From positions 1 to 64,000 of the IMG/VR virus record IMGVR_UViG_3300033182_000991: a DNA stretch of 64,000 nucleotides. One strand, given 5' to 3'. Below, in pieces: positions 25,736 to 43,944 of this stretch. The stretch is from a virus. The position numbers were made by a program, and so were the translations under genes. Below the pieces are notes generated by a model, which searched no databases, was not told the DNA's origin, and worked only from the letters and a program-made list of their open reading frames with translations. Within the stretch, counting starts at the first letter, position 1. Every line of letters starts with the position of its first letter.

Positions 25736-25816
25736 AATTAAGGGGGGTCATCCCCCTTTTTTATTGATATTTTGGGGTAAGACCCCCATAATTATAGGGT
25801 ATAAAACAATATTTCT

Positions 25817-27275: not shown

Positions 27276-27583
27276 CTTCACAAGAGTTGAGAGAAAAAAT
27301 GAATAGCGGTGAGAAGTTCATCGTTGACATGTATGCTGATTGGTGTGGACCTTGCCGAGTGTTGGGACCTATCGTTGAAAGGTATGCAACAAAATTAAAA
27401 GAAGAAGGTTCTGAGGTAGGTGTCTACAAGTTTGACATTGAATCAGATAAAGAGTTGGCTGTTGAGATGGGTGTTCGTTCTATCCCAACGATTAAAGCGG
27501 TATCTAATGGTGAGGTTATCGCAACTAAGACGGGTATCTTGCAAGAGGCTCAACTTGATGAATTGAAACAAACTATCCTGTAA
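27266..27583 (+). CDS. trxA: thioredoxin
   Basis: YADWCGPC, VRSIPT. Confidence 0.92.
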   Translation: MVLTSQELREKMNSGEKFIVDMYADWCGPCRVLGPIVERYATKLKEEGSEVGVYKFDIESDKELAVEMGVRSIPTIKAVSNGEVIATKTGILQEAQLDELKQTIL

Positions 27584-27861
27584 TGAAACAAGTTGTATTA
27601 TATTCTATGAAGGGTTGTCCTTTCTGTGACCAAATGAAAGACTTATTGAAGGAGTCTAAAATTTCATATATTGAAAGAGACATTGACGACCACGAAAGGG
27701 AATATGATAATTTCGTTCAAGCGACAGGTAATGAATTTATTCCAGCGTTTATGTTGATTGAACATAAAGGTGAGGAAGTGTTGGATGTAAAACTGATGGC
27801 CCCTGATAGGGATTTTGAGGACATCCATGAGGCATTAGAAAAAGTAAAACAATTCGTATAA
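27583..27861 (+). CDS. glutaredoxin-like protein
   Basis: LYSMKGCPFC, FIPAF. Confidence 0.85.
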   Translation: MKQVVLYSMKGCPFCDQMKDLLKESKISYIERDIDDHEREYDNFVQATGNEFIPAFMLIEHKGEEVLDVKLMAPDRDFEDIHEALEKVKQFV

Positions 27862-27890
27862 AAAAAGGGGACTTCGGTCCCCTTTCTTTT
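27861..27890. terminator. bidirectional intrinsic terminator
   Basis: aaaggggac-ttcg-gtccccttt between convergent genes. Confidence 0.8.
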
Positions 27891-28603
27891 TATATCATCA
27901 TAAAGTCTTTCATGTGGTCTAATCTGTGCCAAGGATAGTTCATTTCCTGATTGATGTAATCAATGAAGTCAAAGTTTTTCAAATCCATTTTATCAAATTC
28001 TTCTTGGAACTTTTCAGCAAAACAAGCGTCCACGACATTGTTTATAAAATCGATGCTGACGGTGGAATTACCTTTTATATATATGTTAATTTCCTGACTC
28101 TCACTGTTGATATCAATCGTAATCTCGTCATTGGTATAATTAGCACGATAAATATGATTGGCAATCTTTGCTGCCAAGAAGTAATAGTTTTTATAACTTA
28201 TTGATTGACCAAAGATATCTTGTGAGATTATTGGTTTTCTGAATACACCTGCAGTTGCGACAGTACGAGGGTCAGTAATTAGTGTATCATCATCTCGGTT
28301 AAATCTGTGGTAATGAAATCTTCTGTTTTGTGGTTTACTATTTTCACCATATCTTAAAAGGTCCACAATGTTAATCGGAATCCAATCCTCATCGTATATC
28401 TGAGATAGTTTTTCATTTATCACCGCTGAGGTGTCAAACACATTTGTTAATGTGGTGAATCCGTTCACCACAAAAAATCGGTCTACCCACGTCACCCAAA
28501 TTTTTGCTTCCAAATCGGGTTTTATTTCTTCTTGTTTCTGTATGATGATGGTTGCAATCATATCACAAATCTCATCACAGAACCTCAATTCTTTTTTATT
28601 CAT
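27890..28603 (-). CDS. hypothetical protein (faint resemblance to MetK N-terminus)
   Basis: 237 aa; ICDMIATII..FVVNGFTT. Confidence 0.6.
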   Translation of the reverse strand: MNKKELRFCDEICDMIATIIIQKQEEIKPDLEAKIWVTWVDRFFVVNGFTTLTNVFDTSAVINEKLSQIYDEDWIPINIVDLLRYGENSKPQNRRFHYHRFNRDDDTLITDPRTVATAGVFRKPIISQDIFGQSISYKNYYFLAAKIANHIYRANYTNDEITIDINSESQEINIYIKGNSTVSIDFINNVVDACFAEKFQEEFDKMDLKNFDFIDYINQEMNYPWHRLDHMKDFMMI

Positions 28604-28734
28604 TAGTCTTTAACTTGTCTATGGTGAAATTATATTAAAAAGGAATGAAAGGTTAAAGACCAATGATGTATTTATTGTATAGAATTGAGTTGGATTATAT
28701 TTATTAAAATAAACCTTGTGACCTTTATTATTGA

Positions 28735-31700
28735 ATGGCTAAAAATCTAAGAATTGTACCGAACCCCACGGGTTCTACACCGTATATATTATTTGAAAAT
28801 ACTTCAGGTGGAAAGATACAGATGAACATCAAGGATGATGGTTCTATTGTATTCTCTGGTGCAACCAATGGTGATGACTTATTTAAGATGGATGCCAACG
28901 CTCAGAACATTAGAGTTGGTAAGGATGTTAACTTTGAAAATGATATCTATTTTGATAATAAGTTAACCATTTCTGATGATGGTCAATGGGTTGGTACTGA
29001 TGTTGGTGTAAAAGGTAACAAAGGTAGTTTAGGTCCCACTGGCGACCAAGGTGAGAAAGGTCTTAAAGGTTTAAGAGGTTCTCAAGGTGGTGGTGGTGAC
29101 CAAGGTCCTACAGGTGATGATTTCCAAGGTTCAACAGGTCCACAGGGACCACAAGGTCCCACAGGTGAAGACAACACGAAGGGTGATGTCGGTTTCAAAG
29201 GTATTAAAGGTTCCCAAACAAAAGGTCAAAAAGGTCCACAGGGTAGTTCTCCAAGAGGTTCACAAGGTTCGCAAGGGGCATCTCCTAAAGGTATTAAAGG
29301 TGGTCAAGGTCCTCAGGGAGCGATAGGTCCCCAAGGTGGGCAAGGTGTCTCTACGAGGGGTCCTGAAGGTTCATTGGGGGATTCTTTCCAAGGTTCTACA
29401 GGTCCTACAGGTGATTCATCACCAGGGGATGTGGGTGGACAAGGTTCGCAGGGAGCTCAGGGTCCTGGTGGTGATAAGGGTGTTAAGGGACCTGGTGGTT
29501 TGCAAGGGGACAAAGGTCCTACCGCACCTAAAGGTCCAAAAGGATTGAAAGGACCTACCGCACCTAAGGGTCCTAAAGGTTATAAAGGTACAAAAGGTTT
29601 GAAGGGTACTAAGGGTGCTCAGGGTAATTCACCAAGAGGTGCTCTTGGACCACAAGGTGTTTCTCCTATCGGACCACAGGGTACTCAAGGTACGTCACCG
29701 AGAGGTAATCAAGGTGTTATCGGAATTCAGCCAGGTCGTGGTGCACAAGGTGATGCAAATCCAGGACCAACAGGACCTACGGGTTCCACAAATCAGGGAC
29801 CTCAAGGTTCTACAGGTCCAACCAACCAAGGTCCACAAGGTCCTGTTGGTTCTCAGGGTCCTGCGGGTAATGCAGGTCCGAAAGGTCTTAAAGGTTATAA
29901 AGGTACTAAGGGTACCAAAGGTCATAAAGGTTATAAAGGTAATATCGGTGCGTCACCTGTAGGTCCAAGAGGTCCACAAGGTGCGTCGCCTCAAGGACCT
30001 CAGGGTGGTCAGGGACCGCAAGGAGCAGCCAACCCAGGTCCTGTAGGGCCAGGTGGTTCTGCATTTACAGGTAGTGGTGGTGACCAAGGTCCTGTGGGTC
30101 CTCAGGGTAATGACGGACCAAAAGGTCCTAAAGGTATTAAGGGTAATCTTGGTTCCAAAGGTCTTAAAGGTACCAAAGGTAATATTGGTAACTCACCAAG
30201 AGGTCCACAAGGCTCTCAAGGAGCATCACCGAGAGGTGGTACTGGTGCGATAGGTACACAAGGAGCTGCGAATCCTGGACCACAAGGTCCAACAGGTTCA
30301 TCTTTCACTGGTGATGGTGGTGACCAAGGACCAACAGGGCCAACAGGAAACGACGGACCTAAGGGTCTCAAAGGGTACAAAGGTGCTACTGGAGCCAAAG
30401 GATATAAGGGACACAAAGGTTATCGTGGAGCATCACCTCAAGGTCCTATTGGTCCACAAGGTGCATCTCCTCAGGGTGGACAAGGTGCAAGGGGTAATCA
30501 AGGTGCGGCCAATCCAGGTCCTAAAGGTCCTGTAGGTTCAACTAACCAAGGTTCAACAGGACCTCAAGGTTCGGGAGGACCAACGGGTTATGATGGACCT
30601 AAGGGTCCAAAAGGTTACAAGGGAACCAAAGGATTGAAAGGTCGTAAGGGTTTCAAGGGATATATAGGTGGTTCTCCTCAAGGACCAAGAGGTGGTACAG
30701 GGTCTTCACCACAAGGGGGTCAAGGTAATCAGGGTCCTCAGGGTGATGCGAATCCGGGGCCACAAGGACCAACAGGACCATCTTTCCAAGGTTCTACAGG
30801 TCTTCAAGGACCGACAGGTCCAACTGCAGGTGATGGTCCTAAGGGACCAAAAGGTATCAAAGGACCTAAGGGATTGAAAGGTCGTAAGGGTATCAAAGGT
30901 AATGTTGGTAATTCGCCAAGGGGACCTCAAGGTGCTCAAGGAGCATCTCCACGAGGACCACAAGGTAACAGAGGTGGTACAGGTGCTGCCAACCCAGGAC
31001 CAAAAGGACCTGTAGGTTCTTCATTCCAAGGTGCACAAGGAGCTCAGGGTTCCACAGGTCCTACTGGTAATGATGGACCAAAAGGTTATAAGGGATATAA
31101 AGGTGCTTTGGGTGCCAAAGGTTATAAAGGTCATAAGGGTTATCGTGGTTCTTCACCACAAGGTCCTATTGGTAACCAAGGGGGTTCTCCTCAAGGACCG
31201 AGAGGTGCGGGTGGTCCACAAGGTGCCGCTAATCCAGGTCCAAAGGGTCCTGTTGGTGATACAAATCAAGGTTCAACAGGTCCACAAGGTTCAACAGGAC
31301 CACAGGGTAATGACGGACCAAAGGGGCCAAAAGGTTACAAGGGAACCAAAGGTCATAAGGGATATAAAGGACCTAAAGGTTATGTTGGTTCATCACCAAG
31401 GGGTCCTCAGGGTCCACAGGGTGCATCTCCAAGAGGTAATACAGGTGATAATAATCCTGGTCCGACTGGTCCAACAGGTTCTTCGTTCCAAGGTTCAACG
31501 GGTCCTCAGGGTAATGATGGAACAAAAGGTCATAAGGGTTATGTAAGTGCTAAGGGGCACAAAGGTTATATAGGTACGTCGCCAAGAGGTCCTCAAGGGT
31601 CTCAAGGAGCGTCTCCAAGGGGACCGCAGGGTGCTGCCAACCAAGGTGGTACGGGTCCAACGGGTTCTGCCTTCCAAGGTGATAAAGGACCTACAGGTAA

Positions 31701-32898
31701 TGCGGGTGCAAAAGGTTACAAAGGTCTTAAAGGTAGAAAGGGCCATAAAGGTTACATCGGTACTTCACCATTAGGTCCACGAGGTTCTGCGGGTGACTCA
31801 CCAAGAGGTGGTACAGGAGCCAACAATCCGGGGCCTCAAGGACCGACAGGTTCATCATTCCAAGGTTCAACAGGACCACAGGGTAATGACGGACCAAAGG
31901 GGCCGAAAGGTTATAAGGGTGCTAAGGGTCACAAAGGTTATATTGGTTCTAAGGGTCCACAGGGTTCTTCACCAAAAGGACCTATAGGTCCAACAGGTGA
32001 ATCAGAACCAGGTCCAAAAGGTCTTAAGGGACCTAAGGGTTATAAAGGTAGTCCTGGTACAGATGCTAAGGGACGTAAAGGTGGTCCCGGTGCCAAAGGT
32101 ACGAAAGGTCTTAAAGGTTATAAGGGTGATGTAAATACTCAAGCGGGTTCAACGGGTTCAACAGGTCTATATCCAGGTCCGAAGGGACCTAAAGGTTATG
32201 CGGGTAAGATTGGACCATCGGGTACAGGTCCTAAGGGTCCGAGAGGTAACCAAGGGGGTGCGGGCTCAAAAGGTTTGAAAGGTTATAAGGGTAATAAGGG
32301 ACCTAAAGGGTTCAAAGGTCCTGCATCTTCATGTTATTCGGTAACAATGTTCGGTCCGGCTGGTGACGCAGGTGAAGCTTGTATACCTGAGGAATGGAAT
32401 GGTTATTCTGACTGTTCAACTCCGGCTGATGGTTGTAAGGTTTATCAGGTAAGTACCTGTACTTCATGTACATCTTTAACGGGTTTATTCTTAAGTGACG
32501 GTGCAGATGTATTTGAAGTAGGACCTAACAGTGACCCTTGTGAATTAGTTTTTGTTCAAGGTTGTGGTCGTTCGGATGTTAGATTGAAGAATAACATTGA
32601 GACTCTAACAAATATCACAGAGAGAATTCTTGAGATTGATGTGAAAGAATATGATTGGAATGAGAATTTACCTAACTATCAAGACTTAAAAGATAAAGAT
32701 AAGTTACACTCTATCGGTATTATTGCTCAGGAATTGTTACCAATCTTCCCTGAGTTAGTGTATAGAAGAAGTGATGGGTACTACAGTATCTACTACTATA
32801 AGTTGAATGCCATATTAATTGAGGCTGTTAAAGAACAGCAAAGAGAGATTGAGTCTATTGACCAAGACATTAAACTATTATCACAAAAATTGAGTTAA
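28735..32898 (+). CDS. collagen-like tail/virion fibre 1 with Cys-rich tip and Peptidase_S74 chaperone
   Basis: About 1100 aa of Gly-X-Y; 8-Cys segment; SDVRLKNNI..GIIAQE..PELV..Y.KL. Confidence 0.9.
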   Translation: MAKNLRIVPNPTGSTPYILFENTSGGKIQMNIKDDGSIVFSGATNGDDLFKMDANAQNIRVGKDVNFENDIYFDNKLTISDDGQWVGTDVGVKGNKGSLGPTGDQGEKGLKGLRGSQGGGGDQGPTGDDFQGSTGPQGPQGPTGEDNTKGDVGFKGIKGSQTKGQKGPQGSSPRGSQGSQGASPKGIKGGQGPQGAIGPQGGQGVSTRGPEGSLGDSFQGSTGPTGDSSPGDVGGQGSQGAQGPGGDKGVKGPGGLQGDKGPTAPKGPKGLKGPTAPKGPKGYKGTKGLKGTKGAQGNSPRGALGPQGVSPIGPQGTQGTSPRGNQGVIGIQPGRGAQGDANPGPTGPTGSTNQGPQGSTGPTNQGPQGPVGSQGPAGNAGPKGLKGYKGTKGTKGHKGYKGNIGASPVGPRGPQGASPQGPQGGQGPQGAANPGPVGPGGSAFTGSGGDQGPVGPQGNDGPKGPKGIKGNLGSKGLKGTKGNIGNSPRGPQGSQGASPRGGTGAIGTQGAANPGPQGPTGSSFTGDGGDQGPTGPTGNDGPKGLKGYKGATGAKGYKGHKGYRGASPQGPIGPQGASPQGGQGARGNQGAANPGPKGPVGSTNQGSTGPQGSGGPTGYDGPKGPKGYKGTKGLKGRKGFKGYIGGSPQGPRGGTGSSPQGGQGNQGPQGDANPGPQGPTGPSFQGSTGLQGPTGPTAGDGPKGPKGIKGPKGLKGRKGIKGNVGNSPRGPQGAQGASPRGPQGNRGGTGAANPGPKGPVGSSFQGAQGAQGSTGPTGNDGPKGYKGYKGALGAKGYKGHKGYRGSSPQGPIGNQGGSPQGPRGAGGPQGAANPGPKGPVGDTNQGSTGPQGSTGPQGNDGPKGPKGYKGTKGHKGYKGPKGYVGSSPRGPQGPQGASPRGNTGDNNPGPTGPTGSSFQGSTGPQGNDGTKGHKGYVSAKGHKGYIGTSPRGPQGSQGASPRGPQGAANQGGTGPTGSAFQGDKGPTGNAGAKGYKGLKGRKGHKGYIGTSPLGPRGSAGDSPRGGTGANNPGPQGPTGSSFQGSTGPQGNDGPKGPKGYKGAKGHKGYIGSKGPQGSSPKGPIGPTGESEPGPKGLKGPKGYKGSPGTDAKGRKGGPGAKGTKGLKGYKGDVNTQAGSTGSTGLYPGPKGPKGYAGKIGPSGTGPKGPRGNQGGAGSKGLKGYKGNKGPKGFKGPASSCYSVTMFGPAGDAGEACIPEEWNGYSDCSTPADGCKVYQVSTCTSCTSLTGLFLSDGADVFEVGPNSDPCELVFVQGCGRSDVRLKNNIETLTNITERILEIDVKEYDWNENLPNYQDLKDKDKLHSIGIIAQELLPIFPELVYRRSDGYYSIYYYKLNAILIEAVKEQQREIESIDQDIKLLSQKLS
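29875..31890 (+). repeat. 240-nt (80-aa) collagen super-repeats followed by 186-nt (62-aa) variants
   Basis: Anchor GA(C/T)GG recurs at about 30112, 30352, 30592, 30832, 31072, 31312. Confidence 0.85.
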
Positions 32899-34844
32899 TG
32901 GCGCAGAATGTAATCATATATCCATCGGGTAGTACCAAGAATCCATACCCACACATTGAGTTTTCAGGTGTGAATGGATACTACTATTGGGAAATTAATG
33001 AGGATGGGGTGTTATACTCTTACCAACCTAACATTCCAACGAGTGGTCTGACTATGTATTTTGATGCTGCGGCATATGACTCATATTCAGGTGGTACGTT
33101 ATGGTGGGATTTGACGGGTGGTCGTTATCTAATTGGTGAAGGTGATGGTGTTCAATACGATGGTGTGATGACTGGTGCTACAAAATATAGAAACGTCAAT
33201 CAGTTGATACATACTGAAGCCTCTGCGATTAATGTTAATACAGTTAATGAGTGGTGGTTCTCAGATATTGCTAATGGGTTGGAAGATATTAACTTTAATA
33301 ATGATTATTATGACCAGCTGATTGCGGGAAATTATGATACTATATTTGTAAGACTTTATAAGTCTACTGAACCCGATACTTACTACCAAGTTTATAGTGG
33401 GAGTGGTGCGTCTTTAGTTGCTGGTGATGACCTTAAACTTAATATGGTTCGTATAGATGGTGTTAATAGTTGGGACGGTTCAGACATTTATAATACTCAA
33501 AGAGCAGGGTATCCTGGTTTGAATAACAAAGATTTAGATGGTGTGGTCACTGTTGAATTTATCCCATCAAGGAATGGTAGTGGACTAAGTGCTTCTACAA
33601 CAAATGCCAGTTTGGTTAATGCTCCTTACCACAATCCTATTAATGGTGGTGTATTCAGGTTTGATGCTACCAATGAATACGCAAGAGCCTTAGACCCAAA
33701 CATTCGTGGGGGAAGTATTTCTCGTACTATGATTGGATTCTTCAGTGCGGGTACATCTGAGAATGGATGTATTTTTGGTATTGGTGACCAACCTGAAAAT
33801 AACGGTGGTGCTAACTCATCATGGGAGTTATGGAATTATAATCAATCGTCAGGTGCGGGATTAAGAATCCATACTCAAAGTTTTAATTTTGGTACCAGTC
33901 CTGAATATAGATTGACTGACAATTTAGATAAGTGGTTGATGGCGGTTCTTAGTTATGATACTGATGCTAACGTTGCGTCACTAAAGATTTATGATGATGG
34001 TGTGGTAACCTCAGGTACGAGTAGTAATTCATCTATTGATACTATTACAAATAACTTCTCAGTTAATAAATCTGCATATGGTAGTGAAGGTGGTGGTATG
34101 ACAGGTAATTTTGCGTTAGCCTTATACTATGAAAGAGAAATTTTAGATAGTGAGATAGAACAAATTTATAGAGTATTCTCCCCAAGGTTTGGTGTGACTC
34201 CAGCTATTGTTAAGCCAGGACTTGAAATGTGGTTGGATGCCAAAAATACTAACAGTTATACTGGTGGTACTATATGGCATGACTTAACTGAAAACGGTAA
34301 TGATGGAACTATCAATGGTCCGACCCATACTGACTACTACTTAGACTTTGACGGTACTGACGATTACGTTTCTTTACCAGCACAGACTATGTACCGTTCA
34401 GGTGGTACGATATGTATGTTATTTAACAAAGATGCCGAGAACGGAGGATTGTTATGGGGTGCAAACTATGATAGACATTTATCAACACTATCAAATAATT
34501 TCTATGGTGAAACTGCATCAAACTGTAATAGTTTTAATTCACCAACTTACAGTGCAGGGACAGGTAATTGGGTTCAGTATACATTAGTTTTCACGGGGAA
34601 TAGTGCTTATCACTATATTGATGGTGTTTCCATTGGTGAGACTCCAAATTATGGTTCAATAAACTGTGGAAGTGCCACTACTCAATTAGAGGCTGACTTC
34701 CCATTTAGTAGAATTGGTAATTCAACACAATACGTTGGAAACTTTGATGGTAAGATTTCGGTGGTATTGAAATACGATAGACCATTAACTCAAACTGAAA
34801 TCACTAAAAACTACGATGCATTAAAGCAAAGATACAGTGATTAA
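32898..34844 (+). CDS. LamG/ConA-like lectin-domain fibre-associated protein
   Basis: GL.MY/WLDA..SY.GGT.W.DL repeated; FDGTDDYV; FDGKI..Y.R.LT..EI..NY. Confidence 0.8.
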   Translation: MAQNVIIYPSGSTKNPYPHIEFSGVNGYYYWEINEDGVLYSYQPNIPTSGLTMYFDAAAYDSYSGGTLWWDLTGGRYLIGEGDGVQYDGVMTGATKYRNVNQLIHTEASAINVNTVNEWWFSDIANGLEDINFNNDYYDQLIAGNYDTIFVRLYKSTEPDTYYQVYSGSGASLVAGDDLKLNMVRIDGVNSWDGSDIYNTQRAGYPGLNNKDLDGVVTVEFIPSRNGSGLSASTTNASLVNAPYHNPINGGVFRFDATNEYARALDPNIRGGSISRTMIGFFSAGTSENGCIFGIGDQPENNGGANSSWELWNYNQSSGAGLRIHTQSFNFGTSPEYRLTDNLDKWLMAVLSYDTDANVASLKIYDDGVVTSGTSSNSSIDTITNNFSVNKSAYGSEGGGMTGNFALALYYEREILDSEIEQIYRVFSPRFGVTPAIVKPGLEMWLDAKNTNSYTGGTIWHDLTENGNDGTINGPTHTDYYLDFDGTDDYVSLPAQTMYRSGGTICMLFNKDAENGGLLWGANYDRHLSTLSNNFYGETASNCNSFNSPTYSAGTGNWVQYTLVFTGNSAYHYIDGVSIGETPNYGSINCGSATTQLEADFPFSRIGNSTQYVGNFDGKISVVLKYDRPLTQTEITKNYDALKQRYSD

Positions 34845-34868
34845 ACTATTTATTAAAAGACTTGAATT

Positions 34869-35117
34869 ATGACAAATTATACTTACTTGATAATCAAAAC
34901 GAACGAGGTTGATAAGGTTGATTTCAGCCAAGTCAGAGAGACATCATCTGAAACTTTGAGACATAGTTTGGATGATACAAAGACATTTATTAAGTGGGAT
35001 AATGAAACGCCAACTTTTGTGAATAATTTTGAATGGACGGACGGTCCTTATAATCATACACAAATAATTAATATTTTATCTACGGATGAATGGGTTGATA
35101 CTAATGGGCCGAGTTAA
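34869..35117 (+). CDS. small tail-region protein
   Basis: VDFSQV.ETS..TLR.S.D.TK.F.KW..ILS..EW pattern; lies among fibre genes. Confidence 0.65.
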   Translation: MTNYTYLIIKTNEVDKVDFSQVRETSSETLRHSLDDTKTFIKWDNETPTFVNNFEWTDGPYNHTQIINILSTDEWVDTNGPS

Positions 35118-38100
35118 TGAAAGCAAGAATATTTCAAATATCTGATTCCGCAAATCCCCTAAAGATTTATGTAATCTCTAAGTTCAATGAAGGATTGGAT
35201 GTGAATTCCAATGCGGTTATTGATGCAAAAGGGCAATGGGTAGGTCCAATCACCAACCTTAAAGGTCTTAAGGGTGAGAAGGGTGATTTGGGTAACAAAG
35301 GTATTAAAGGAACTCAAGGTACCACTGGTGGAGGTGGTGACAAAGGTCTTAAAGGTAATAAGGGTCTTAAGTTCGGTAAGGGTCACAAAGGTTTAATTGG
35401 TGATAAGGGTATCAAAGGTCGTAAAGGTCTTGTTGCCGATAAAGGTCCAACAGGTACAACAGGTACAGGAACAAAAGGTACTCAGGGTCCTGTAGGTGAT
35501 TCAGTTCAAGGTTCTACAGGTCCTACGGGTTCAGCATTTATTGGTCCAACAGGTGGAGGAGGAGACCAAGGTCCACAAGGTGGTCAGGGTTCTACGGGTC
35601 CGACGGGTGCTGCTGGTGATAAAGGACCTAAAGGTGTTAAGGGAGCCAAAGGTAGTAAAGGTATTAAAGGACCAACTGCTGGTAAGGGTTTGAAAGGTGA
35701 TACAGGTTCAACAGGTGCTGGTGGTGATAAGGGATATAAAGGAGCTGCAGGTACAGGTCCTAAGGGTCAGAAAGGTCCTCAGGGTAATTCGCCAATTGGT
35801 GCTAAAGGTCCACAGGGAAGTTCTCCTCGTGGTAACTTTGGTGGTCAAGGAAATCAAGGTGGACAAGGTGGTGTTGGTGACAACAATCCAGGTCCAAAAG
35901 GACCAATAGGTTCAACTAATCAGGGTCCTATTGGTGACCAAGGACCTACATTCCAAGGGTCTACAGGTCTTCAAGGTTCAGGTGGTCCTGGTGGTGACAA
36001 AGGACCTCAGGGTAATGATGGTCCAAAAGGACCTAAAGGATATAAAGGTGGTGTTGGTGCCAAAGGTATTAAAGGTACTAAGGGTTCTACTGGTCCTAAG
36101 GGTCTTAAAGGTAGAAAAGGTAATATTGGTACATCACCAATCGGTCCTCAAGGTCCACAGGGTTCTTCACCATTAGGACCAAGAGGAGGTCAAGGTGCAC
36201 AAGGAGCTGCCAATCCAGGACCTCAAGGTCCAACGGGTTCTTCCTTCCAAGGTTCAGGTGGTGACCAAGGACCGACAGGTCCACAAGGAAACGATGGACC
36301 TAAGGGTATTAAAGGTACCAAAGGTACGAAGGGTCTCAAAGGACGTAAGGGTGTAAAAGGTTACATCGGTGGTTCACCACAAGGTCCTATCGGTCCTCAA
36401 GGAGCATCTCCACAAGGAGGTCAGGGTAATCAGGGACCTCAGGGTGATGCGAATCCAGGCCCAACAGGACCAACAGGTTCTTCATTTACAGGGGACGGTG
36501 GTGACCAAGGTCCAACTGGACCGACAGGGAACGATGGACCGAAGGGTCCAAAAGGTTACAAGGGAACCAAAGGATTAAAAGGACGTAAGGGTGTGAAGGG
36601 TTACATTGGTGCATCACCTCAAGGACCTATTGGTCCACAAGGTGCATCTCCACGTGGTCCACAAGGTGCAAGAGGTGGTACAGGAGCATCCAACCCAGGT
36701 CCTCAGGGTCCGACAGGTCCGTCATTTACAGGTAGTGGTGGTGACCAAGGTCCGGTAGGTCCACAAGGAAACGATGGTCCAAAAGGACCTAAGGGTATCA
36801 AAGGTGGTGCCGGAGCCAAAGGTTATAAAGGTCACAAAGGTTACAGAGGGACATCACCTCAAGGACCTCGTGGTGCAACAGGTGCGTCTCCCCAAGGTGC
36901 ACAGGGTGCAAGAGGTAATACAGGTTCTGCTAATCCTGGTCCAACAGGTCCAGGTGGTTCGGCTAACCCAGGTGCTCAGGGACCTGGTGGTGATAAAGGT
37001 CCGATAGGTAATGATGGGGCTAAGGGTTACAAAGGTACTAAAGGAGCCAAAGGTCATAAGGGATATAAAGGACCTAAAGGTTATGTTGGTAGTTCACCAC
37101 AAGGACCTATTGGTCCACAAGGTGCATCACCACAGGGTCCACAAGGTGGTCAAGGTCCTCAAGGGGCTAATAATCCAGGTCCAAAGGGACCTACAGGACC
37201 GGCGTATCAAGGTCCAATAGGGCCTGGTGGTTCAGGTGGTCCAACAGGTTATGACGGTCCAAAAGGACCTAAGGGTATAAAAGGACCAACTGGTCCTCAG
37301 GGTGATAAAGGTTTCAAAGGAAACATTGGTAATTCACCAAGAGGTCCATTCGGACCAACAGGTGCATCTCCACGAGGACCACAAGGTAACAGAGGTGGAA
37401 CAGGTGCTGGTAATCCTGGTCCTCAGGGTCCAGGTGGTTCTGCATTCCAAGGTAGTGGAGGTGCTCAAGGACCGACAGGACCACAAGGTAACGATGGACC
37501 AAAAGGTCCTAAAGGTTATAAAGGTGGTACTGGTGCCAAAGGATATAAAGGTCATAAGGGATATAGAGGTACTTCACCAACAGGTCCGAGAGGTGCACAA
37601 GGTGTATCCCCACGTGGTAATACAGGTGCACGTGGTGTTACAGGAGCTAATAATCCAGGACCAAAAGGTCCTGTTGGACCAGCATTCCAAGGAGATAAGG
37701 GTTACACTGCTCCTGATGGTGCAAAAGGTTACAAAGGACTCAAGGGTAGAAAAGGCCATAAAGGATATATTGGAGGTTCTCCATTAGGTCCACGTGGTTC
37801 GGCAGGTGCATCACCGAGAGGACCACAAGGTGCGGCTAATCCAGGACCAACAGGTCCAGGAGGTTCGGCCTTCCAAGGTGATAAGGGACCTACAGGTAAT
37901 GCAGGTGCTAAAGGTTACAAAGGACTCAAGGGTAGAAAAGGTCATAAAGGATATATTGGTACATCACCGAGAGGTCCACAAGGTAATCAAGGGGCATCTC
38001 CGAGAGGTAACCAAGGGTCAGCCAATCCAGGTCCGAAGGGACCTAAAGGGTATAGTAATCCTGGTTCAACAGGGCCTACAGGTTATGATGGTCCAAAGGG

Positions 38101-38905
38101 TCCTAAGGGTATTAAAGGGTCTAAGGGACACAAGGGATATATAGGTAATTCTCCTCAAGGTCCGAGAGGTGCCACAGGTGCTTCTCCACGAGGAGGTGGA
38201 GGTGATACAGGACCTGGTGGTTCTAATAATCCAGGACCAAAAGGTTATAAAGGTGCTGCGGGTTATGGTCCTATCGGATTACAAGGTAATAGAGGGGCGA
38301 CAGGTCCACAAGGTTCACCTGGATTAGAACCAGGTGAAGACGGTTCAACAGGTTCAACAGGTTTCCAAGGTCCAGCGAGTAACGCTAAGGGTCCTAAGGG
38401 TCCCAAAGGACCTAAAGGTTACATTGGTAATGCCCCTAAAGGTCCAAGAGGTCCTGCGGGTTCAACGGGTTCATCGGCGGTTGGTGCAAAGGGTCCTATT
38501 GGTTCAACGGGTGCTCAAGGTAACCAAGGTGGTAGAGGACCTCAAGGTGCTAAGGGTTATAGAGGTCCTCAGGGTCCATCATCGGATGAGAGATTAAAGA
38601 CAAACATCAAAGGATTGAAAGGTAACCTTTCTAAGTTGTTGTTATTGAAAGGTCTTTACTTTGATTGGAATGATGATGAGTTTACTACAAATTATCTGAA
38701 TGGTATTAAGGGTACCTCTATTGGTTTCGTTGCGCAGGAGGTTGAAGAAGTATTGCCTGATGTGGTTGAAAGAGACCCTCAAGGTGTGATGGGTGTGGAG
38801 TATGATATTATGTCAGTAATTGCCTTAGGTGCTCTCCAAGAACAACACACGAGAATACTTATGTTAAAGGATAGAATAAACAATTTGAAAGAGTTGGTTG
38901 ACTAA
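35117..38905 (+). CDS. collagen-like fibre 2 with Peptidase_S74 chaperone
   Basis: Gly-X-Y to GPQGPS then SDERLKTNI..GFVAQEVEEVLPDVV. Confidence 0.9.
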   Translation: MKARIFQISDSANPLKIYVISKFNEGLDVNSNAVIDAKGQWVGPITNLKGLKGEKGDLGNKGIKGTQGTTGGGGDKGLKGNKGLKFGKGHKGLIGDKGIKGRKGLVADKGPTGTTGTGTKGTQGPVGDSVQGSTGPTGSAFIGPTGGGGDQGPQGGQGSTGPTGAAGDKGPKGVKGAKGSKGIKGPTAGKGLKGDTGSTGAGGDKGYKGAAGTGPKGQKGPQGNSPIGAKGPQGSSPRGNFGGQGNQGGQGGVGDNNPGPKGPIGSTNQGPIGDQGPTFQGSTGLQGSGGPGGDKGPQGNDGPKGPKGYKGGVGAKGIKGTKGSTGPKGLKGRKGNIGTSPIGPQGPQGSSPLGPRGGQGAQGAANPGPQGPTGSSFQGSGGDQGPTGPQGNDGPKGIKGTKGTKGLKGRKGVKGYIGGSPQGPIGPQGASPQGGQGNQGPQGDANPGPTGPTGSSFTGDGGDQGPTGPTGNDGPKGPKGYKGTKGLKGRKGVKGYIGASPQGPIGPQGASPRGPQGARGGTGASNPGPQGPTGPSFTGSGGDQGPVGPQGNDGPKGPKGIKGGAGAKGYKGHKGYRGTSPQGPRGATGASPQGAQGARGNTGSANPGPTGPGGSANPGAQGPGGDKGPIGNDGAKGYKGTKGAKGHKGYKGPKGYVGSSPQGPIGPQGASPQGPQGGQGPQGANNPGPKGPTGPAYQGPIGPGGSGGPTGYDGPKGPKGIKGPTGPQGDKGFKGNIGNSPRGPFGPTGASPRGPQGNRGGTGAGNPGPQGPGGSAFQGSGGAQGPTGPQGNDGPKGPKGYKGGTGAKGYKGHKGYRGTSPTGPRGAQGVSPRGNTGARGVTGANNPGPKGPVGPAFQGDKGYTAPDGAKGYKGLKGRKGHKGYIGGSPLGPRGSAGASPRGPQGAANPGPTGPGGSAFQGDKGPTGNAGAKGYKGLKGRKGHKGYIGTSPRGPQGNQGASPRGNQGSANPGPKGPKGYSNPGSTGPTGYDGPKGPKGIKGSKGHKGYIGNSPQGPRGATGASPRGGGGDTGPGGSNNPGPKGYKGAAGYGPIGLQGNRGATGPQGSPGLEPGEDGSTGSTGFQGPASNAKGPKGPKGPKGYIGNAPKGPRGPAGSTGSSAVGAKGPIGSTGAQGNQGGRGPQGAKGYRGPQGPSSDERLKTNIKGLKGNLSKLLLLKGLYFDWNDDEFTTNYLNGIKGTSIGFVAQEVEEVLPDVVERDPQGVMGVEYDIMSVIALGALQEQHTRILMLKDRINNLKELVD
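36290..38110 (+). repeat. 240-nt collagen super-repeats plus shorter variants
   Basis: Anchors at 36291, 36531, 36771, 37011, 37251, 37491. Confidence 0.85.
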
Positions 38906-41900
38906 TGGCAAAGAACATTAAAATAACACCGAAAAGTGGTATCATTGAATTCTCAGGTGCTACGAGTTCATCAATTGATTTGGGACACAATGAGAGTTCT
39001 GATGAGTTGAAGTTCTCAGGGTCATCATTAGACCCTGTTAGGTTAACGGTTAAAGGTGGTTATACATTCAACTCTGACTCTAAGGTATTGGTTGAAAATA
39101 GTGGTGAGGTTCTATCTAAAGGTCAAAAGAGAATTGATAAAGGTGGTGTATGGCAAGGACCGAGAGCTCAGGATAAGGGTATTAAAGGTTTCAAAGGTAC
39201 TAAAGGACCAAATGCTGTTACTGCTGAAACGGGTGATAAGGGTTACCGTGGTACTCAGGGTACTATTGGTGCCAATCAAGCCGTAGGTACAAGAGGTAAT
39301 CAAGGACCACAAGGAGGTATTGGTTCTCAAGGACAAAAAGGTATTAAAGGACCTGCGGGTGGTGTAGGTTCAACAGCCGACCCATCACCAGCGGGTGATA
39401 AAGGACCTACAGCACCAAAGGGACCTAAAGGTTATAAGGGTACAAAAGGTGCTAAAGGTGGTGCTGGTGACAAAGGTCAGAAAGGTAATATCGGTAATAA
39501 GGGTATTAAAGGTATTGTCGGTACATCTCCGAAAGGTTTTATTGGTCCACAAGGTTCTTCCCCACAAGGTGAGAAAGGACCTCAGGGAGACTCTCCTAAG
39601 GGTATTAAAGGTGTTAAAGGTACTAAGGGTGACCGTGGTGGTTCTGGTACTGGTGGTGATAATAACCCAGGTGCTCAAGGACCTGTCGGTGATTCAGTAC
39701 AAGGTTCAACAGGACCAACTGGTATCTCTGTTCAGGGACCTGCGGGTTCACAGGGTCCAACAGGGCCAGGTGGTGATAAGGGACCTATTGCTCCTGATGG
39801 TGCAAAAGGTTTCAAGGGTATCAAAGGAACTACAGGTGACAAAGGTATAAAAGGTATCAAAGGGGTTAAAGGTGACAAGGGTTACAAAGGACCTAAAGGT
39901 ATTAAAGGACACAAAGGTTTTATTGGTTTATCACCTCAAGGACCAAGAGGTGCCACAGGTGCATCACCTATCGGACCGCAAGGACCACAAGGAGCCTCAC
40001 CAATTGGACCACAGGGTGGTCAGGGTGGACAAGGTAATGCAACACCAGGTCCTGAAGGTGATTTAGGTTCAGCGTTCCAAGGTAGTGGAGGTGCACAAGG
40101 ACCGACAGGACCACAAGGTAATGACGGTCCAAAAGGACCGAAAGGTTATAAAGGGTCTGAAGGATTGAAAGGTCGTAAAGGTATTAAAGGTAATATCGGT
40201 AACTCACCTATTGGTCCACAAGGACCTCAAGGGGCATCCCCTCAAGGTGCTCAGGGTGCAAGAGGTAATACAGGTGCTGCTAATCCAGGTCCTCAGGGAC
40301 CAGGTGGCTCTGCTAATCCTGGTGCTCAAGGACCTGGTGGTGACAAAGGACCGACAGGTAACGATGGAGCAAAAGGTTACAAAGGTACTAAGGGAGCCAA
40401 AGGACACAAAGGTTATAAAGGTAACAAAGGTTTGAGAGGTAATTCTCCTGTGGGTCCACGTGGTGGTACAGGTGCATCACCTCAAGGTGCTCAAGGTAAC
40501 AGAGGTGGTACAGGTGCCCCTAATCCAGGTCCAAAAGGACCTATCGGTGATACAAATCAGGGTTCTACAGGTCCTCAGGGTTCTGGTGGTCCAACGGGTT
40601 ATGATGGACCAAAAGGACCTAAGGGTATCAAAGGTCCTAAAGGGTTGAAAGGACGTAAAGGGGTTAAAGGTTACATCGGAACATCTCCACAAGGACCTAT
40701 TGGTCCACAGGGTGCGTCACCAAGAGGACCACAAGGTGCGAGGGGTGGTCAAGGAGCTGCTAATCCTGGTCCAACGGGACCTACAGGTTCTTCATTTACA
40801 GGTAGTGGAGGTGACCAAGGGCCGGTCGGACCACAAGGTAATGACGGACCAAAGGGACCTAAGGGTTACAAAGGTGCTTTGGGTGCTAAAGGTCTTAAAG
40901 GTAGAAAAGGTAATATCGGTAATTCGCCAAGAGGTCCACAGGGACCACAAGGAGCATCACCACGTGGTAACACAGGTGCTCGTGGTGTGACGGGAGCCAA
41001 CAATCCAGGTCCTCAGGGTCCAGGAGGGTCTTCATTCCAAGGTAGTGGTGGTGCTCAAGGACCTACAGGTCCAGGTGCTGGTGACGGTGCAAAAGGTTAT
41101 AAAGGTATAAAGGGTTCTCTTGGTGCTAAAGGTTATAAAGGTCATAAGGGATATAGAGGAGCTTCTCCTCAGGGTCCTATTGGTCCACAAGGTTCATCAC
41201 CTAAAGGTTATAGAGGTCCACAAGGTGTTCAAGGAGCAACTAATCCAGGTCCTAAAGGTCCTGTGGGTTCAACGAATCAAGGCTCAACGGGTCCACAAGG
41301 TTCAGGTGGACCGACAGGATATGACGGTCCAAAAGGACCTAAGGGTATAAAAGGACCTAAAGGGTTGAAAGGACACAAAGGTTATAAGGGTAACATAGGT
41401 AACTCACCACAAGGACCTATCGGTCCACAAGGGGCGTCACCAAGAGGTAACCAAGGTGCGAGGGGTGGTCAAGGAGCTGCTAATCCTGGTCCTACAGGTC
41501 CTACAGGTTCTGCATTCCAAGGTTCAACAGGACCTCAAGGTCCTACTGGGCCAACTGCGGGCGATGGTGCAAAAGGTTACAAAGGTCTTAAAGGTATAAA
41601 AGGGCATAAAGGTTATACTGGTTCTTCACCACGAGGACCGCAAGGTGCTCAAGGGGCTTCCCCAAGAGGTAATACAGGTGCTGCCAATCCGGGTCCAAAA
41701 GGTCCTAAAGGATATAGTAATCCTGGTGATAAAGGACCTACAGGTAATGATGGTGCAAAAGGTTACAAAGGACTTAAGGGTAGAAAAGGACATAAAGGTT
41801 ACATCGGTAATTCTCCAAGAGGTCCTCAAGGGTCTCAAGGAGCGTCTCCAAGGGGACCGCAGGGTGCTGCCAACCAAGGTGGCACAGGTCCTACAGGTTC

Positions 41901-42840
41901 TGCATTCCAAGGGTCAACAGGTCCTCAAGGTAACGACGGAACAAAAGGTCATAAGGGATATGTAAATACTAAAGGTCATAAGGGTTATAGAGGGGGTTCA
42001 CCACAAGGACCTATCGGTCCACAAGGTGCATCCCCGAGAGGGGGACAAGGTTCTGCTAATCCAGGTCCTACAGGACCAGGTGGTTCGGCATTCCAAGGAG
42101 ATAAAGGTCCACAAGGTCCAAAAGGTCCGACAGCACCTGATGGACCACGAGGTCCAACTGGAGCTACTGGTTCACCAGGACCTGAAGGGCCAATAGGTTC
42201 AACAGGACCACAAGGTTCTGTTGGTTCTCCAGGTGCTAATGGAGTAAAAGGACCAAAAGGTCCTAAAGGTGCACAGGGTTCTGCCGGTACAGGTGGTTCC
42301 ATAGGTTCTAAAGGTCCACGTGGTCCACAGGGTGCTGCCAATCCTGGTGGTACGGGTGACAAAGGTCCAAAGGGTCCTAAGGGTTACACTGCAACTGCTG
42401 CACCTGGTCCAAAAGGTCCTAAAGGATATATTGGTAATACTGGTGGTACGGGACCAGTAGGTGGTAGAGGTCCGATTGGTTCAACAGGTTCGTCAGGTTC
42501 TTCAGATAGAAGATTGAAGAAAAACTTCCGTGAAATCAAAGATGCATTGGATAAAGTATTGAAGATGCGTGGTGTTCACTTTACATGGGTTGAAGAGAAT
42601 ACTGTTGATGGTTCATATGTACCCACAGGTCAACAAGACATTGGTGTAATTGCACAGGAAATTAAGGAACAATTCCCTGAATTGGTAAGAGAAGAGGATA
42701 GTGGTATCTTAACTGTACAATACGCATTGATGGTTTCAATTTTGACTGAGGCTATTCAACAACAAAACTCAATTTTAGATAAGAAAGAGATTGAGTTAGA
42801 ACGTTTAGAAGTACTTGCGAAATCTAAAGGATTGTTATAA
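38905..42840 (+). CDS. collagen-like fibre 3 with Peptidase_S74 chaperone
   Basis: Gly-X-Y then SDRRLKKNF..GVIAQEIKEQFPELV. Confidence 0.9.
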   Translation: MAKNIKITPKSGIIEFSGATSSSIDLGHNESSDELKFSGSSLDPVRLTVKGGYTFNSDSKVLVENSGEVLSKGQKRIDKGGVWQGPRAQDKGIKGFKGTKGPNAVTAETGDKGYRGTQGTIGANQAVGTRGNQGPQGGIGSQGQKGIKGPAGGVGSTADPSPAGDKGPTAPKGPKGYKGTKGAKGGAGDKGQKGNIGNKGIKGIVGTSPKGFIGPQGSSPQGEKGPQGDSPKGIKGVKGTKGDRGGSGTGGDNNPGAQGPVGDSVQGSTGPTGISVQGPAGSQGPTGPGGDKGPIAPDGAKGFKGIKGTTGDKGIKGIKGVKGDKGYKGPKGIKGHKGFIGLSPQGPRGATGASPIGPQGPQGASPIGPQGGQGGQGNATPGPEGDLGSAFQGSGGAQGPTGPQGNDGPKGPKGYKGSEGLKGRKGIKGNIGNSPIGPQGPQGASPQGAQGARGNTGAANPGPQGPGGSANPGAQGPGGDKGPTGNDGAKGYKGTKGAKGHKGYKGNKGLRGNSPVGPRGGTGASPQGAQGNRGGTGAPNPGPKGPIGDTNQGSTGPQGSGGPTGYDGPKGPKGIKGPKGLKGRKGVKGYIGTSPQGPIGPQGASPRGPQGARGGQGAANPGPTGPTGSSFTGSGGDQGPVGPQGNDGPKGPKGYKGALGAKGLKGRKGNIGNSPRGPQGPQGASPRGNTGARGVTGANNPGPQGPGGSSFQGSGGAQGPTGPGAGDGAKGYKGIKGSLGAKGYKGHKGYRGASPQGPIGPQGSSPKGYRGPQGVQGATNPGPKGPVGSTNQGSTGPQGSGGPTGYDGPKGPKGIKGPKGLKGHKGYKGNIGNSPQGPIGPQGASPRGNQGARGGQGAANPGPTGPTGSAFQGSTGPQGPTGPTAGDGAKGYKGLKGIKGHKGYTGSSPRGPQGAQGASPRGNTGAANPGPKGPKGYSNPGDKGPTGNDGAKGYKGLKGRKGHKGYIGNSPRGPQGSQGASPRGPQGAANQGGTGPTGSAFQGSTGPQGNDGTKGHKGYVNTKGHKGYRGGSPQGPIGPQGASPRGGQGSANPGPTGPGGSAFQGDKGPQGPKGPTAPDGPRGPTGATGSPGPEGPIGSTGPQGSVGSPGANGVKGPKGPKGAQGSAGTGGSIGSKGPRGPQGAANPGGTGDKGPKGPKGYTATAAPGPKGPKGYIGNTGGTGPVGGRGPIGSTGSSGSSDRRLKKNFREIKDALDKVLKMRGVHFTWVEENTVDGSYVPTGQQDIGVIAQEIKEQFPELVREEDSGILTVQYALMVSILTEAIQQQNSILDKKEIELERLEVLAKSKGLL
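40120..42110 (+). repeat. 240-nt collagen super-repeats plus shorter variants
   Basis: Anchors at 40121, 40361, 40601, 40841, 41081, 41321, 41561. Confidence 0.85.
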
Positions 42841-42894: not shown

Positions 42895-43944
42895 ATGTTT
42901 TACAATTACAAACCTTCCAAAGAAAGATATATTGTTTATAGAACCAACGACGGTGGTATTGGTGATAGATTGATAGGTGCAATGAATGCCTTCCTGATGG
43001 CGTTCGTTAACGATTATCATTTTAGAATCCAAGACAATACTAAAACACCAATGGTTGAAGTGTTCACAAGCAATCATAACTGGTGGAAAAGAGATTGGTT
43101 TGAGACTCCCATGAAACGAGGTAGGTTAAATCTACTATCTTCTTATGATGACTTAGTACAGTATATTACAGAAGGTACCATTGAAGATTACTACCCAAAC
43201 GCGGAGTGTTTGTATTTTTACTCCAACCAAAACTTAGTACCATACTTTTTCAAAAATCCTGAATATAAATTGAAACTTGATAAGATTGGGATTACTCAAG
43301 AGAATGTATACTCTGAAATGTTCAATTACCTGTTCACCTTGGAGGACGAATATAAAAAGAACTACAACTACCTTAAGAGTAAGTTGTTCTTAGATGTTAA
43401 GTATGTAATTGGTGTACATCTTAGAACCAATTGGAATTGGGGTGATGTACCACAAATAAGTAGAAACACCGTTCAAAAGTTTATCACAGCAATCAATCAG
43501 AATTACTTACCCAATGCAAGAGTATTGGTATCATCAGATTCACAGATGGGTTATGACATGTTGAAGGAAGGTATCAAAGGTATGGATGTTGTAAGAATTT
43601 CAGGTGATGCCGTTCACATTTCAAAAGATGATAATACTAAGTTAAATGACTTATTGAAAACGGTATTTGAAATCTATCTTTTGTCTGAATCTGATTTGTT
43701 GATTGGTTCTTATTGGTCAAACTTTACACGATTGTCAGTGATGAAAAGTCCAAAGAAATCAGTGATGGTAGAAATGGAAGTGGAACCGTATGATACTGCA
43801 AATGAATCCACAAAGTATTGGGTGGAGCAAATGGGTCATTCGTTAAGTGATGTGTATACAGACATTAAAAAAGCTTTTAGATTCCCACTAACAATAAAGG
43901 GTCACACAAAGTGCGACCCCGAAGTATTGTTTACTATTAAGTAA
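42895..43944 (+). CDS. fucosyltransferase-like GT-B glycosyltransferase (NodZ/GT23/O-FucT-like)
   Basis: GGIGDRL, IGVHLR, VSSDS, LLSESDLLIGSYWSNFT. Confidence 0.75.
   Translation: MFYNYKPSKERYIVYRTNDGGIGDRLIGAMNAFLMAFVNDYHFRIQDNTKTPMVEVFTSNHNWWKRDWFETPMKRGRLNLLSSYDDLVQYITEGTIEDYYPNAECLYFYSNQNLVPYFFKNPEYKLKLDKIGITQENVYSEMFNYLFTLEDEYKKNYNYLKSKLFLDVKYVIGVHLRTNWNWGDVPQISRNTVQKFITAINQNYLPNARVLVSSDSQMGYDMLKEGIKGMDVVRISGDAVHISKDDNTKLNDLLKTVFEIYLLSESDLLIGSYWSNFTRLSVMKSPKKSVMVEMEVEPYDTANESTKYWVEQMGHSLSDVYTDIKKAFRFPLTIKGHTKCDPEVLFTIK

Follow-up and report, generated by a model that had tools for sequence, protein, structure and literature searches.

Three collagen-like fibre genes of a large uncultured phage with an 80-residue super-repeat, equal rods and exchanged ends

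What do three long collagen-like genes standing in tandem on a viral contig encode, and how would their chains be put together? The question arises from a stretch of 64,000 nucleotides (the window; positions 1 to 64,000 of IMG/VR virus record IMGVR_UViG_3300033182_000991), in which the genes named here A, B and C each carry a collagen rod with an 80-residue super-repeat. On balance we favour the reading that A, B and C are three paralogous, tail-fibre-like virion fibres of a large uncultured phage, which would be homotrimeric, segmented, capped by a Peptidase_S74 domain and probably lysine-modified, and whose repeat arrays would act as in-frame exchange zones. Collagen-like fibres have been described in phages before; they are usually short and have been treated as simple spacers.

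The complete virus record (G000) comprises 112,919 bases and is estimated to be 38% complete. Its contig encodes a head maturation protease, a sigma factor, endolysins and DNA methylases, and no collagen-like open reading frames (ORFs) beyond A, B and C were found on it. A giant-virus origin was considered and ruled out by the phage head protease, the sigma factor and the endolysins.

Fibre genes and their 80-residue super-repeat

The fibre genes, their parts and the gene between A and B are as follows (window positions; aa, amino acids).

28735-32898, + strand: fibre gene A, 1387 aa (ORF and translation)
28735-29004, + strand: gene A, N-terminal module (N_A), aa 1-90
29005-32325, + strand: gene A, Gly-spaced collagen rod, aa 91-1197
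29875-31944, + strand: gene A, super-repeat array, about aa 381-1070; anchors at aa 405, 485...885, 947, 1009
aa 1198-1279, + strand: gene A, Cys-rich tip
32572-32898, + strand: gene A, Peptidase_S74 chaperone, from Ser1280 (S-D-x3-K motif at residue 1280)
32898-34844, + strand: lectin-like protein, 648 aa, between A and B; Laminin_G_3 at aa 485-635 (Pfam E 8.7e-12)
35117-38905, + strand: fibre gene B, 1262 aa; N-terminal module (N_B) aa 1-49
35264-38581, + strand: gene B, collagen rod, aa 50-1155
36056-38329, + strand: gene B, super-repeat array, about aa 314-1071; anchors at aa 338...818, 886, 948, 1010
38582-38905, + strand: gene B, Peptidase_S74, from Ser1156 (E 2.2e-12)
38905-42840, + strand: fibre gene C, 1311 aa; N-terminal module (N_C) aa 1-91
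39178-42501, + strand: gene C, collagen rod, aa 92-1199
39886-42177, + strand: gene C, super-repeat array, about aa 328-1091; anchors at aa 352...832, 906, 968, 1030
from Ser1200, + strand: gene C, Peptidase_S74 (E 5.7e-16)

Pfam Collagen (PF01391) matched the three fibre genes with E values of 1.1e-50, 3.9e-43 and 2.7e-50, and Peptidase_S74 (PF13884) scored 47.3, 47.5 and 59 bits in A, B and C, above its cut-off of 22 (gene A: E 2.5e-12). Peptidase_S74 is a self-cleaving intramolecular chaperone of endosialidases and phage fibres. An S-D/E-x3-K motif (S-x4-K), whose Ser and Lys, going by endosialidase work, are presumably the catalytic pair, stands at the start of the S74 domain in all 18 fibres of six records. 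Between the S74 domains of the three genes identity is only 25-30%, and they belong to three conserved lineages. Each chain would run from a short N-terminal docking module through a rod of about 1,107 residues and an optional tip (the Cys-rich knob in A) to the S74 chaperone, which would gather three chains at the C-terminus and then cut itself off at the conserved Ser. After removal of S74 the mature chains of B and C would end in collagen, and that of gene A would keep a Cys-rich domain of about 80 residues; only chain A has this tip. Counted as Gly-spaced residues, the rods of A, B and C are 1107, 1106 and 1109 residues long. At the textbook collagen rise of 0.286 nm per residue this corresponds to about 316 nm, provided that the rod is wholly triple-helical.

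The sequence G-x-W-x-G directly precedes the rod in all fibres, and a short N-terminal motif, the first ~25 residues of the lectin-like protein, is common to N_A, N_C and the lectin-like protein. The best matches in PHROG, and the nearest annotated families to the window fibres, are the tail-fibre families phrog_6320 (E 3.2e-114), phrog_5073 and phrog_819, with matches that rest largely on the collagen and S74 parts. A tblastn search with the N_C module against 50,697 phage records revealed no match. The stop of A and the start of the lectin-like gene overlap by one base (32896-32900), and the stop of B and the start of C likewise share one base (38903-38907); these overlaps suggest translational coupling within one operon.

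A sequence-only reading of the window had proposed an exact 240-nt periodicity in all three genes. Autocorrelation confirmed it, with peaks at DNA lags 240, 480 and 720 and at protein lag 80. DNA self-identity at these three lags was 0.418/0.407/0.398 in A, 0.441/0.431/0.430 in B and 0.429/0.420/0.430 in C, compared with a baseline, taken as the mean at all multiple-of-9 lags, of 0.310-0.326 (standard deviation (SD) 0.027-0.031). Protein self-identity at lag 80 was 0.371 in A, 0.383 in B and 0.360 in C; 200 random reorderings of the Gly-started tokens gave 0.146, 0.159 and 0.151 at this lag (SD 0.019-0.021), and the highest value in any shuffle at lags 30 to 299 was 0.241-0.254. Each gene contains seven anchors of the form 'G.SP.-2 triplets-G.SP.' at an exact spacing of 80 residues, i.e. 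six periods, which are followed by shortened units of 62+62 residues in A, 68+62+62 in B and 74+62+62 in C.

The units showed the anatomy that the same reading had described, eight Lys-rich triplets followed by four G-X4 breaks spaced by 2-3 triplets, and also its 62-aa variants toward the C-termini, which were found in all three genes. A unit starts with eight K-rich G-X-K triplets, GxSPx, two triplets, GxSPx, three triplets and GAANP, and ends with two triplets, GSxFQ (or GSTNQ/GSANP) and five triplets closing in GND/GYD. The four breaks per 80 residues have fixed spacings of 11, 14 and 11, and the three chains hold 56, 53 and 50 five-residue tokens, plus a few other breaks, vs 264-268 triplets. 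In the 62-residue variants all four breaks are kept and two triplets are lost at each of three places. The proposed Asp-containing block was recovered in part: an acidic spot is present in GND/GYD, but it is weak, with a mean of 2.0 acidic vs 9.1 basic residues per unit. Each chain has a net charge of +102 and a pI of 10.4-10.5. The span of 29875-42110 that had been given for the collagens does hold the arrays, but it also takes in non-repeat gene ends and the unrelated lectin-like gene at 32898-34844. We picture the unit as an alternation of a cationic stretch of about 44 residues (eight G-X-Lys triplets and a spacer) with about 36 residues holding the four breaks.

The repeat units are 58-78% identical in DNA and the length period is exact. 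Recent gene conversion as the source of the likeness between the arrays was ruled out, since no unit pair exceeds 78% DNA identity. Unit subtypes recur between genes (B4 with C2 and B3 with C4 at 78%, A5 with B6 at 77%), and gene C hints that three units together form a repeat of higher order (240 aa; identity of 0.308 at lag 240 vs 0.307 at lag 80), with lag 720 as the top long lag of its DNA. When the repeat region served as query in a word-based protein search, 2,960 proteins came back, the top one 48% identical; the eight that were inspected are ordinary collagen fibres without the 80-residue unit.

A megablast search with window positions 16000-29000 against the 50,697 phage records revealed no match, and a search for related loci with A and C found two related contigs only. 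The first, L004, is a 42-kb viral contig with three fibres about 65% identical to those of the window, a lectin-like gene and an 80-residue period. Comparing the N-proximal rods of the window and L004 showed that 44 of 44-45 non-triplet tokens keep their position and length, at 79-83% aa identity. The second, L005 (record G002; 297 kb, 99% complete), encodes three fibres with the same break motifs and Lys-rich blocks (K-blocks) and a period of 132 residues; its N and C modules are 41-56% identical to those of the window. A distant group (G003, G004, G005 and G007), found via the glycosyltransferase described below, has three tandem S74-ended fibre genes in each record, and K-blocks with 6- and 7-residue breaks at periods of 82/41 or 40 residues. 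As L005 and the distant group keep the K-blocks at other periods or with other breaks, the comparison indicates that the alternation of Lys blocks and short breaks is conserved, and that the period and the break length are specific to the lineage.

One of the three fibres in the relatives carries a non-collagen insert of 219-359 residues inside its rod, which is likely an extra knob on that fibre. The insert-bearing fibres are as follows (inserts at aa 473-691 or 240-598).

L112, 5659-10341: insert-bearing fibre
L113, 5759-10942: insert-bearing fibre
L114, 5022-10343: insert-bearing fibre
L005, 1991-6850: insert-bearing fibre (L5a, insert near the N-terminus)

Trimer register, rod lengths and exchange of ends

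To compare trimer compositions, we set three chains at given offsets and determined the fraction of axial levels that hold a single Gly, neither more nor fewer. Homotrimers of A, B or C reached 0.88-0.89, the remainder being breaks. The A:B:C heterotrimers that the sequence-only reading had put forward reached only 0.51 when the ends were flush and no more than 0.73 when they were offset by 50-100 residues, over a background of 0.44 +/- 0.07 at all offsets, and were not upheld. The test gave the same picture for L004. A register shared by the three chains, on which that proposal had relied, exists inside the arrays, but not in the ~550 flanking collagen residues. The register test, the rod inserts of the relatives and the distinct S74 domain of each chain disfavour an A:B:C heterotrimer; as far as the sequences tell, each of A, B and C most likely forms a homotrimer. 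A three-copy trimer prediction of C residues 567-726 (two repeat units) scored 0.09 vs a mark of 0.32, which gives no call in either direction.

In a homotrimer the breaks would lie at the same level in all three chains, so that the fibre would be segmented and periodically softened. Gly-X4-Gly ('G4G') breaks are known from type IV collagen, whose helix is believed to take them up as local soft spots. The window fibres resemble these type IV-like breaks in their five-residue Gly-to-Gly steps within long Gly-X-Y runs, but differ from them in being strictly periodic and in having fixed motifs (G-x-S-P-x, G-A-A-N-P, G-S-x-F-Q). The regular kinks that had been predicted stand as far as the breaks are concerned, which are real, regular and conserved vs L004; it is plausible that they act as kinks or soft spots at regular intervals. 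A literature search on 'G4G' interruptions returned clinical papers only.

Rod lengths are matched within every record but vary from one record to another. They are 1052/1053/1057 residues in L004, 1159/1153 in L005 with a third rod of 1327 including its insert, and, with inserts subtracted, 1054/1037/1044 in G003, 1091/1073/1080 in G004 and 1130/1110/1125 in G005. Within-record length ranges as small as those observed occurred in none of 20,000 label permutations (0/20,000). The arrays of A, B and C start 314, 288 and 260 residues after the collagen start, so that the sequences do contain a stagger, with phases of 74/48/20 mod 80 that lie about one third of a period apart.

The N and C modules at the two ends of the rods are paired differently in the two closest records. 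The window pairs N_A-C_A, N_B-C_B and N_C-C_C, whereas L004 pairs N_A-C_B, N_C-C_A and N_B-C_C. Individual comparisons with the three L004 fibres (L4a, L4b, L4c) matched the N module of A with L4a (86%), that of B with L4c (94%) and that of C with L4b (91%); the C module of A matched L4b, that of B L4a (92%) and that of C L4c (70%), with a range of 62-92%. Non-corresponding N or C modules are about 25-33% identical. A blastn comparison aligned window 30111-38049 (array A, C_A, lectin-like gene, N_B, array B) colinearly to L004 8125-16023, and window 36209-41989 (array B, C_B, N_C, array C) to L004 4209-9956. By these alignments, the two segments between the three arrays have traded places, with C_A, the lectin-like gene and N_B moving together in a single block. 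Within each L004 gene the best-matching window gene changes in the super-repeat, a region in which the three window genes match equally well at 0.65-0.75.

The pairing of the window is also found in L005, and the pairing and order of L004 also in G003, G004 and G005. The window and L004 are mutual closest relatives (their PLOD-type proteins are 84% identical). Because both arrangements recur in divergent records while these two are closest to each other, the distribution calls for at least two swaps, or transfers of an arrangement. Being homologous and in the same reading frame, the arrays could act as recombination substrates; they share exact words of 26-68 bases. A plausible route is that a segment and a repeat are excised by recombination between two arrays and re-enter at the third. 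Such exchange of segments between arrays would cyclically re-pair docking modules with tips and leave the three rods equal. Equal rods in both arrangements, together with in-register crossovers, imply phase differences of 0 or 1/3 period, and by the same algebra the arrangements should differ in length by 1/3 or 2/3 period; the observed difference of 1107 - 1054 = 53 residues is near 2/3 of 80.

Lysine blocks and candidate modifying enzymes

Lys occurs 98-99 times per chain in the Y position and 0-1 times in X, and Pro 93-98 times in X and 1-2 times in Y. Candidate modifying enzymes are encoded on both sides of the fibre genes (2OG, 2-oxoglutarate).

17996-20074, + strand: LH3/PLOD-type collagen glycosyltransferase homologue, 692 aa; glycosyltransferase (GT) and accessory domains; Pfam GT_PLOD E 9.5e-64
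47453-48061, + strand: 2OG-Fe(II) oxygenase, candidate Lys/Pro hydroxylase, 202 aa; Pfam 2OG-FeII_Oxy_3 E 1.2e-14
48462-49184, - strand: second 2OG-Fe(II) oxygenase, 240 aa; Pfam 2OG-FeII_Oxy_4/3; weak PDB hydroxylase matches, E 3e-4
43937-45592, - strand: GT17-family glycosyltransferase, just downstream of the fibres; Pfam E 1.4e-41; syntenic in L004
45589-47388, - strand: carbamoyltransferase; Pfam E 4.8e-69; syntenic in L004

The LH3-like glycosyltransferase gene lies 8.7 kb upstream of the fibres. In the PDB its product matched human LH3 (6fxk, E 8.6e-51) and mimivirus R699 (9dyt, E 4.7e-33), and its DSYD (D95-S-Y-D98) aligns with the DSYD of LH3 and is invariant in all three relatives. 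According to the accessible part of PMC12279948, two active-site Asp residues of R699 bind Mn2+. The protein also has a SAM-methyltransferase-like insert (~aa 230-366) between its LH3-aligned parts (to ~180 and from ~186), which is kept in the L005 copy (626 aa) and absent from the distant-group copies of ~470 aa. The product of 47453-48061 matches phrog_61 at positions 442-631 (E 3.2e-36), and the GT part of the same family matches 17996-20074; in the PDB it matched only PKHD-type hydroxylases (E 2.7e-7). A further 2OG oxygenase is encoded outside the window, at 85134-85724 of the contig.

An LH3-like glycosyltransferase is present in three of three related records. Among the IMG/VR loci around homologues of this enzyme, 17 of 19 contain a collagen-like ORF in which Lys makes up 15-55% of the Y and ~0% of the X positions. 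The 19 loci form 12 clusters at 80% identity, including that of the window, and a collagen ORF lies within the locus in 10 of the 12, or 11 counting L005, whose record is one of the two exceptions and whose fibres begin 9.8 kb from its glycosyltransferase. Control loci around thymidylate synthase homologues revealed a collagen-like ORF in 1 of 80, and in this ORF Lys is absent from Y. A collagen run of 165 residues, with 43% Lys in Y, stands in a tail-fibre gene of the cultured Synechococcus phage S-8S55. S-8S55 (L115, record 28142-31184) also encodes a GT25 + GT_PLOD protein with a 2OG-oxygenase-like C-terminal part, and this gene directly follows two 2OG-FeII_Oxy_3 genes and three tail-fibre genes. 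The residue pattern and the enzyme families suggest that the G-X-Lys blocks of the window fibres are probably hydroxylated and glycosylated by the phage LH3-like transferase and 2OG oxygenases.

Further sugar genes near the fibres encode a GT11-like protein (54754-55740) and a 349-aa protein with a faint fucosyltransferase match (42895-43944). These two proteins, the GT17 enzyme and the carbamoyltransferase could extend or cap a fibre glycan.

Alternative readings, known collagen systems and neighbouring genes

That A, B and C are instead subunits of one A:B:C heterotrimeric rod in the style of C1q or type IV collagen, with the shared 80-residue register serving for zipping, we consider unlikely. 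The gene number would fit, with three collagen fibre genes each in the window, L004 and L005 and a tandem of three long, S74-ended ORFs in every record of the distant group (G003, G004, G005 and G007); the rods of one genome are equally long and change in length together from genome to genome, the array phases are 1/3 period apart, and new combinations of N and C modules would do no harm in a fibre that contained all of them. Yet the one-Gly levels fall far below those of the homotrimers, pairwise Gly coincidence reaches at most 0.63-0.69 at any offset, and a mixed helix could not hold the non-collagen inserts of ~220-360 residues in one L005 chain and in the middle gene of G003-G005. The Cys-rich tip of chain A alone and the low identity of the three conserved S74 lineages also argue against it. 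The 1/3-period offsets could alternatively set a fixed stagger between fibres bundled side by side, as banded bundles or a nine-chain rope. L005 shows phases near thirds as well (130/37/79 mod 132 from the rod end, by hand arithmetic with a tolerance of ~7 residues), equal rods would suit such bundling, and the N-terminal motif found in A, C and the lectin-like protein could bind a single docking site. We regard bundling as decidedly unlikely, since rods with a net charge of +102 would repel their neighbours and equal rods in both gene arrangements would account for the 1/3 phases by algebra, without contact. The charge-driven D-banding expected by the sequence-only reading is not supported either: the rods are strongly cationic and show no complementary charge pattern.

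The super-repeat might also have arisen neutrally, through tandem duplication within a gene of low complexity, its breaks, blocks and period having no function. The lineage-specific periods (80, 132, 82/41/40 residues) and break lengths (5 residues in the window, 6-7 in the distant group) would agree with this; against it, the units are old by their DNA identity and yet retain four breaks and a K-block each, break positions are fully conserved vs L004, the alternation is kept in all lineages, and unit number shifts in step across the three genes so that lengths stay equal. A neutral origin of this kind appears very improbable. The end-swapping, finally, could have been produced by metagenome assembly across similar repeats. 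All records are assemblies, the arrays have exact 26-68-base words in common, and contigs from four public runs (sponge, estuary, seawater and aquatic metagenomes; 0.3-4.2 kb, ~90-95% likeness) break inside arrays, none bridging a whole array, so that they neither confirm nor refute either arrangement; between a fifth and a quarter of the words sampled are present in 20 rows from 12 studies, and the sides of the public-run joints listed have at most 27 letters. Against an artefact stand the occurrence of each arrangement in independent, divergent contigs (that of the window in L005, that of L004 in G003, G004 and G005), the intact reading frames and equal rods in every record, and the two coordinated mis-joins that a consistent cyclic permutation would require. 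We hold this explanation to be highly improbable.

Several points weigh against the homotrimeric, exchange-prone and lysine-modified fibres that we prefer. The triple helix, trimer state, self-cleavage, kinks and lysine modification are all predicted from sequence, as is a placement on the tail rather than the head. The homotrimer model leaves unexplained the three genes, the equal lengths and the 1/3-period phases, which fit subunits of one heteromeric rod. The PHROG tail-fibre matches may reflect collagen and S74 composition, a word-based search with N_A found no N-module homologue among proteins of 762-2428 residues (198 candidates), and an AlphaFold2 model of N_A from a 6-sequence alignment had a pLDDT of 58.9, a poor fold. 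A unit identity of 58-78% makes a poor substrate for ordinary homologous recombination. With relatives that are all metagenome assemblies sharing 26-68-base words, one assembly may contain a mis-join; yet each arrangement occurs in several independent contigs. As to the lysines, no clear LH-type lysyl hydroxylase domain was found, and the 2OG oxygenases match generic PKHD/P4H types only (PDB E 2.7e-7 to 2.5e-5); Lys in Y might be favoured by helix stability alone.

A more far-reaching proposal, which we put forward tentatively and with more doubt than confidence, is that the locus encodes a complete phage 'procollagen' system. Three fibres of ~0.3 micrometre would be nucleated and released by self-cleaving C-terminal ends, LH3-like enzymes of the phage would hydroxylate and glycosylate their Lys blocks to give sugar clusters about every 23 nm, the super-repeat would serve as the crossover zone for the cyclic re-pairing of virion anchors and fibre tips, and the 1/3-period offset would keep lengths equal after every swap.

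The collagen fibres of E. coli O157 prophages (EPcl proteins), as presented in the accessible part of PMC3368898, resemble the window fibres in their layout of N-terminal domain, Gly-X-Y rod and trimerising cap at the C-terminus, in the modular combination of end domains across genomes and in occasional Gly-X-Y interruptions. The longest collagen domain named in that part has 322 residues and a single interruption. Compared with these proteins, the window fibres have ~1,107-residue rods with 50-56 breaks in a strict 80-residue super-repeat, a self-cleaving S74 cap instead of PfC, and three tandem paralogues of equal length. They also differ from the endosialidases, since in B and C the S74 domain stands directly after the collagen rod and would leave no globular tip after cleavage; in function this S74 may be likened to a procollagen C-propeptide.

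The uninterrupted rod of animal collagen types I-III is not found here, with 50-56 five-residue breaks per chain, nor is their complementary charge and hydrophobic pattern for a staggered fit; A:B:C also lacks the common Gly and interruption register of C1q and type IV heterotrimers. The window rods are nevertheless as long as animal type I collagen, and they combine this length with a strict higher-order repeat of rigid Lys-rich segments and five-residue breaks, a natural design rule for segmented triple helices that may be usable in bacterial collagen engineering.

Mimivirus (L230, R699) and the LH3/PLOD3-COLGALT system, as far as described in the available parts of PMC12279948, PMC4691112 and PMC9546862, offer the closest parallel for the lysine blocks: mimivirus also encodes collagen-like proteins together with an LH3-type GT, Lys stands in an X-Lys-Gly context as in LH3 substrates, and the acidic metal-binding motif is kept. 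Unlike the mimivirus and animal systems covered there, the system of the window has a bacterial host, a methyltransferase-like insert in the GT, no LH domain and oxygenases of generic type encoded by separate genes, and it is known from sequence. The linkage between LH3/PLOD-type enzymes and collagens with Lys in Y in bacterial viruses suggests that collagen lysine glycosylation extends beyond animals and giant viruses, and cultured cyanophages such as S-8S55 make phage collagen lysine modification testable. A literature search, for which most subscription journals lay outside the coverage, returned no description of such a system in phages.

An antireceptor of Streptococcus thermophilus phages (PMC5601072, accessible part) likewise has collagen-like repeats between exchangeable host-recognition modules. 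In contrast to the S. thermophilus phages, the exchange described here takes place among three paralogues of one genome, involves whole inter-array blocks and preserves equal rod length. The collagen-like repeats of S. thermophilus phages were reportedly proposed as recombination hot spots by Duplessis and Moineau in 2001. The three paralogues of the window present repeats as in-frame exchange zones, with the same two anchor/tip arrangements recurring across divergent phages, and rod lengths matched within a few residues point to a length constraint on the fibres.

Neighbouring genes of the window include one for an 842-aa protein with a TonB-dependent-receptor Plug domain (E 3.1e-12; 22160-24688) and, between the LH3-like glycosyltransferase and the fibres, one for a 375-aa glutamine-synthetase-like protein (25817-26944), both syntenic in L004. 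Also encoded in the window are a sigma factor, a DnaJ that is complete with J, Zn-finger and C domains, and two DNA methyltransferases (3661-4497, 13292-14248, 15296-16195, 56348-57232).

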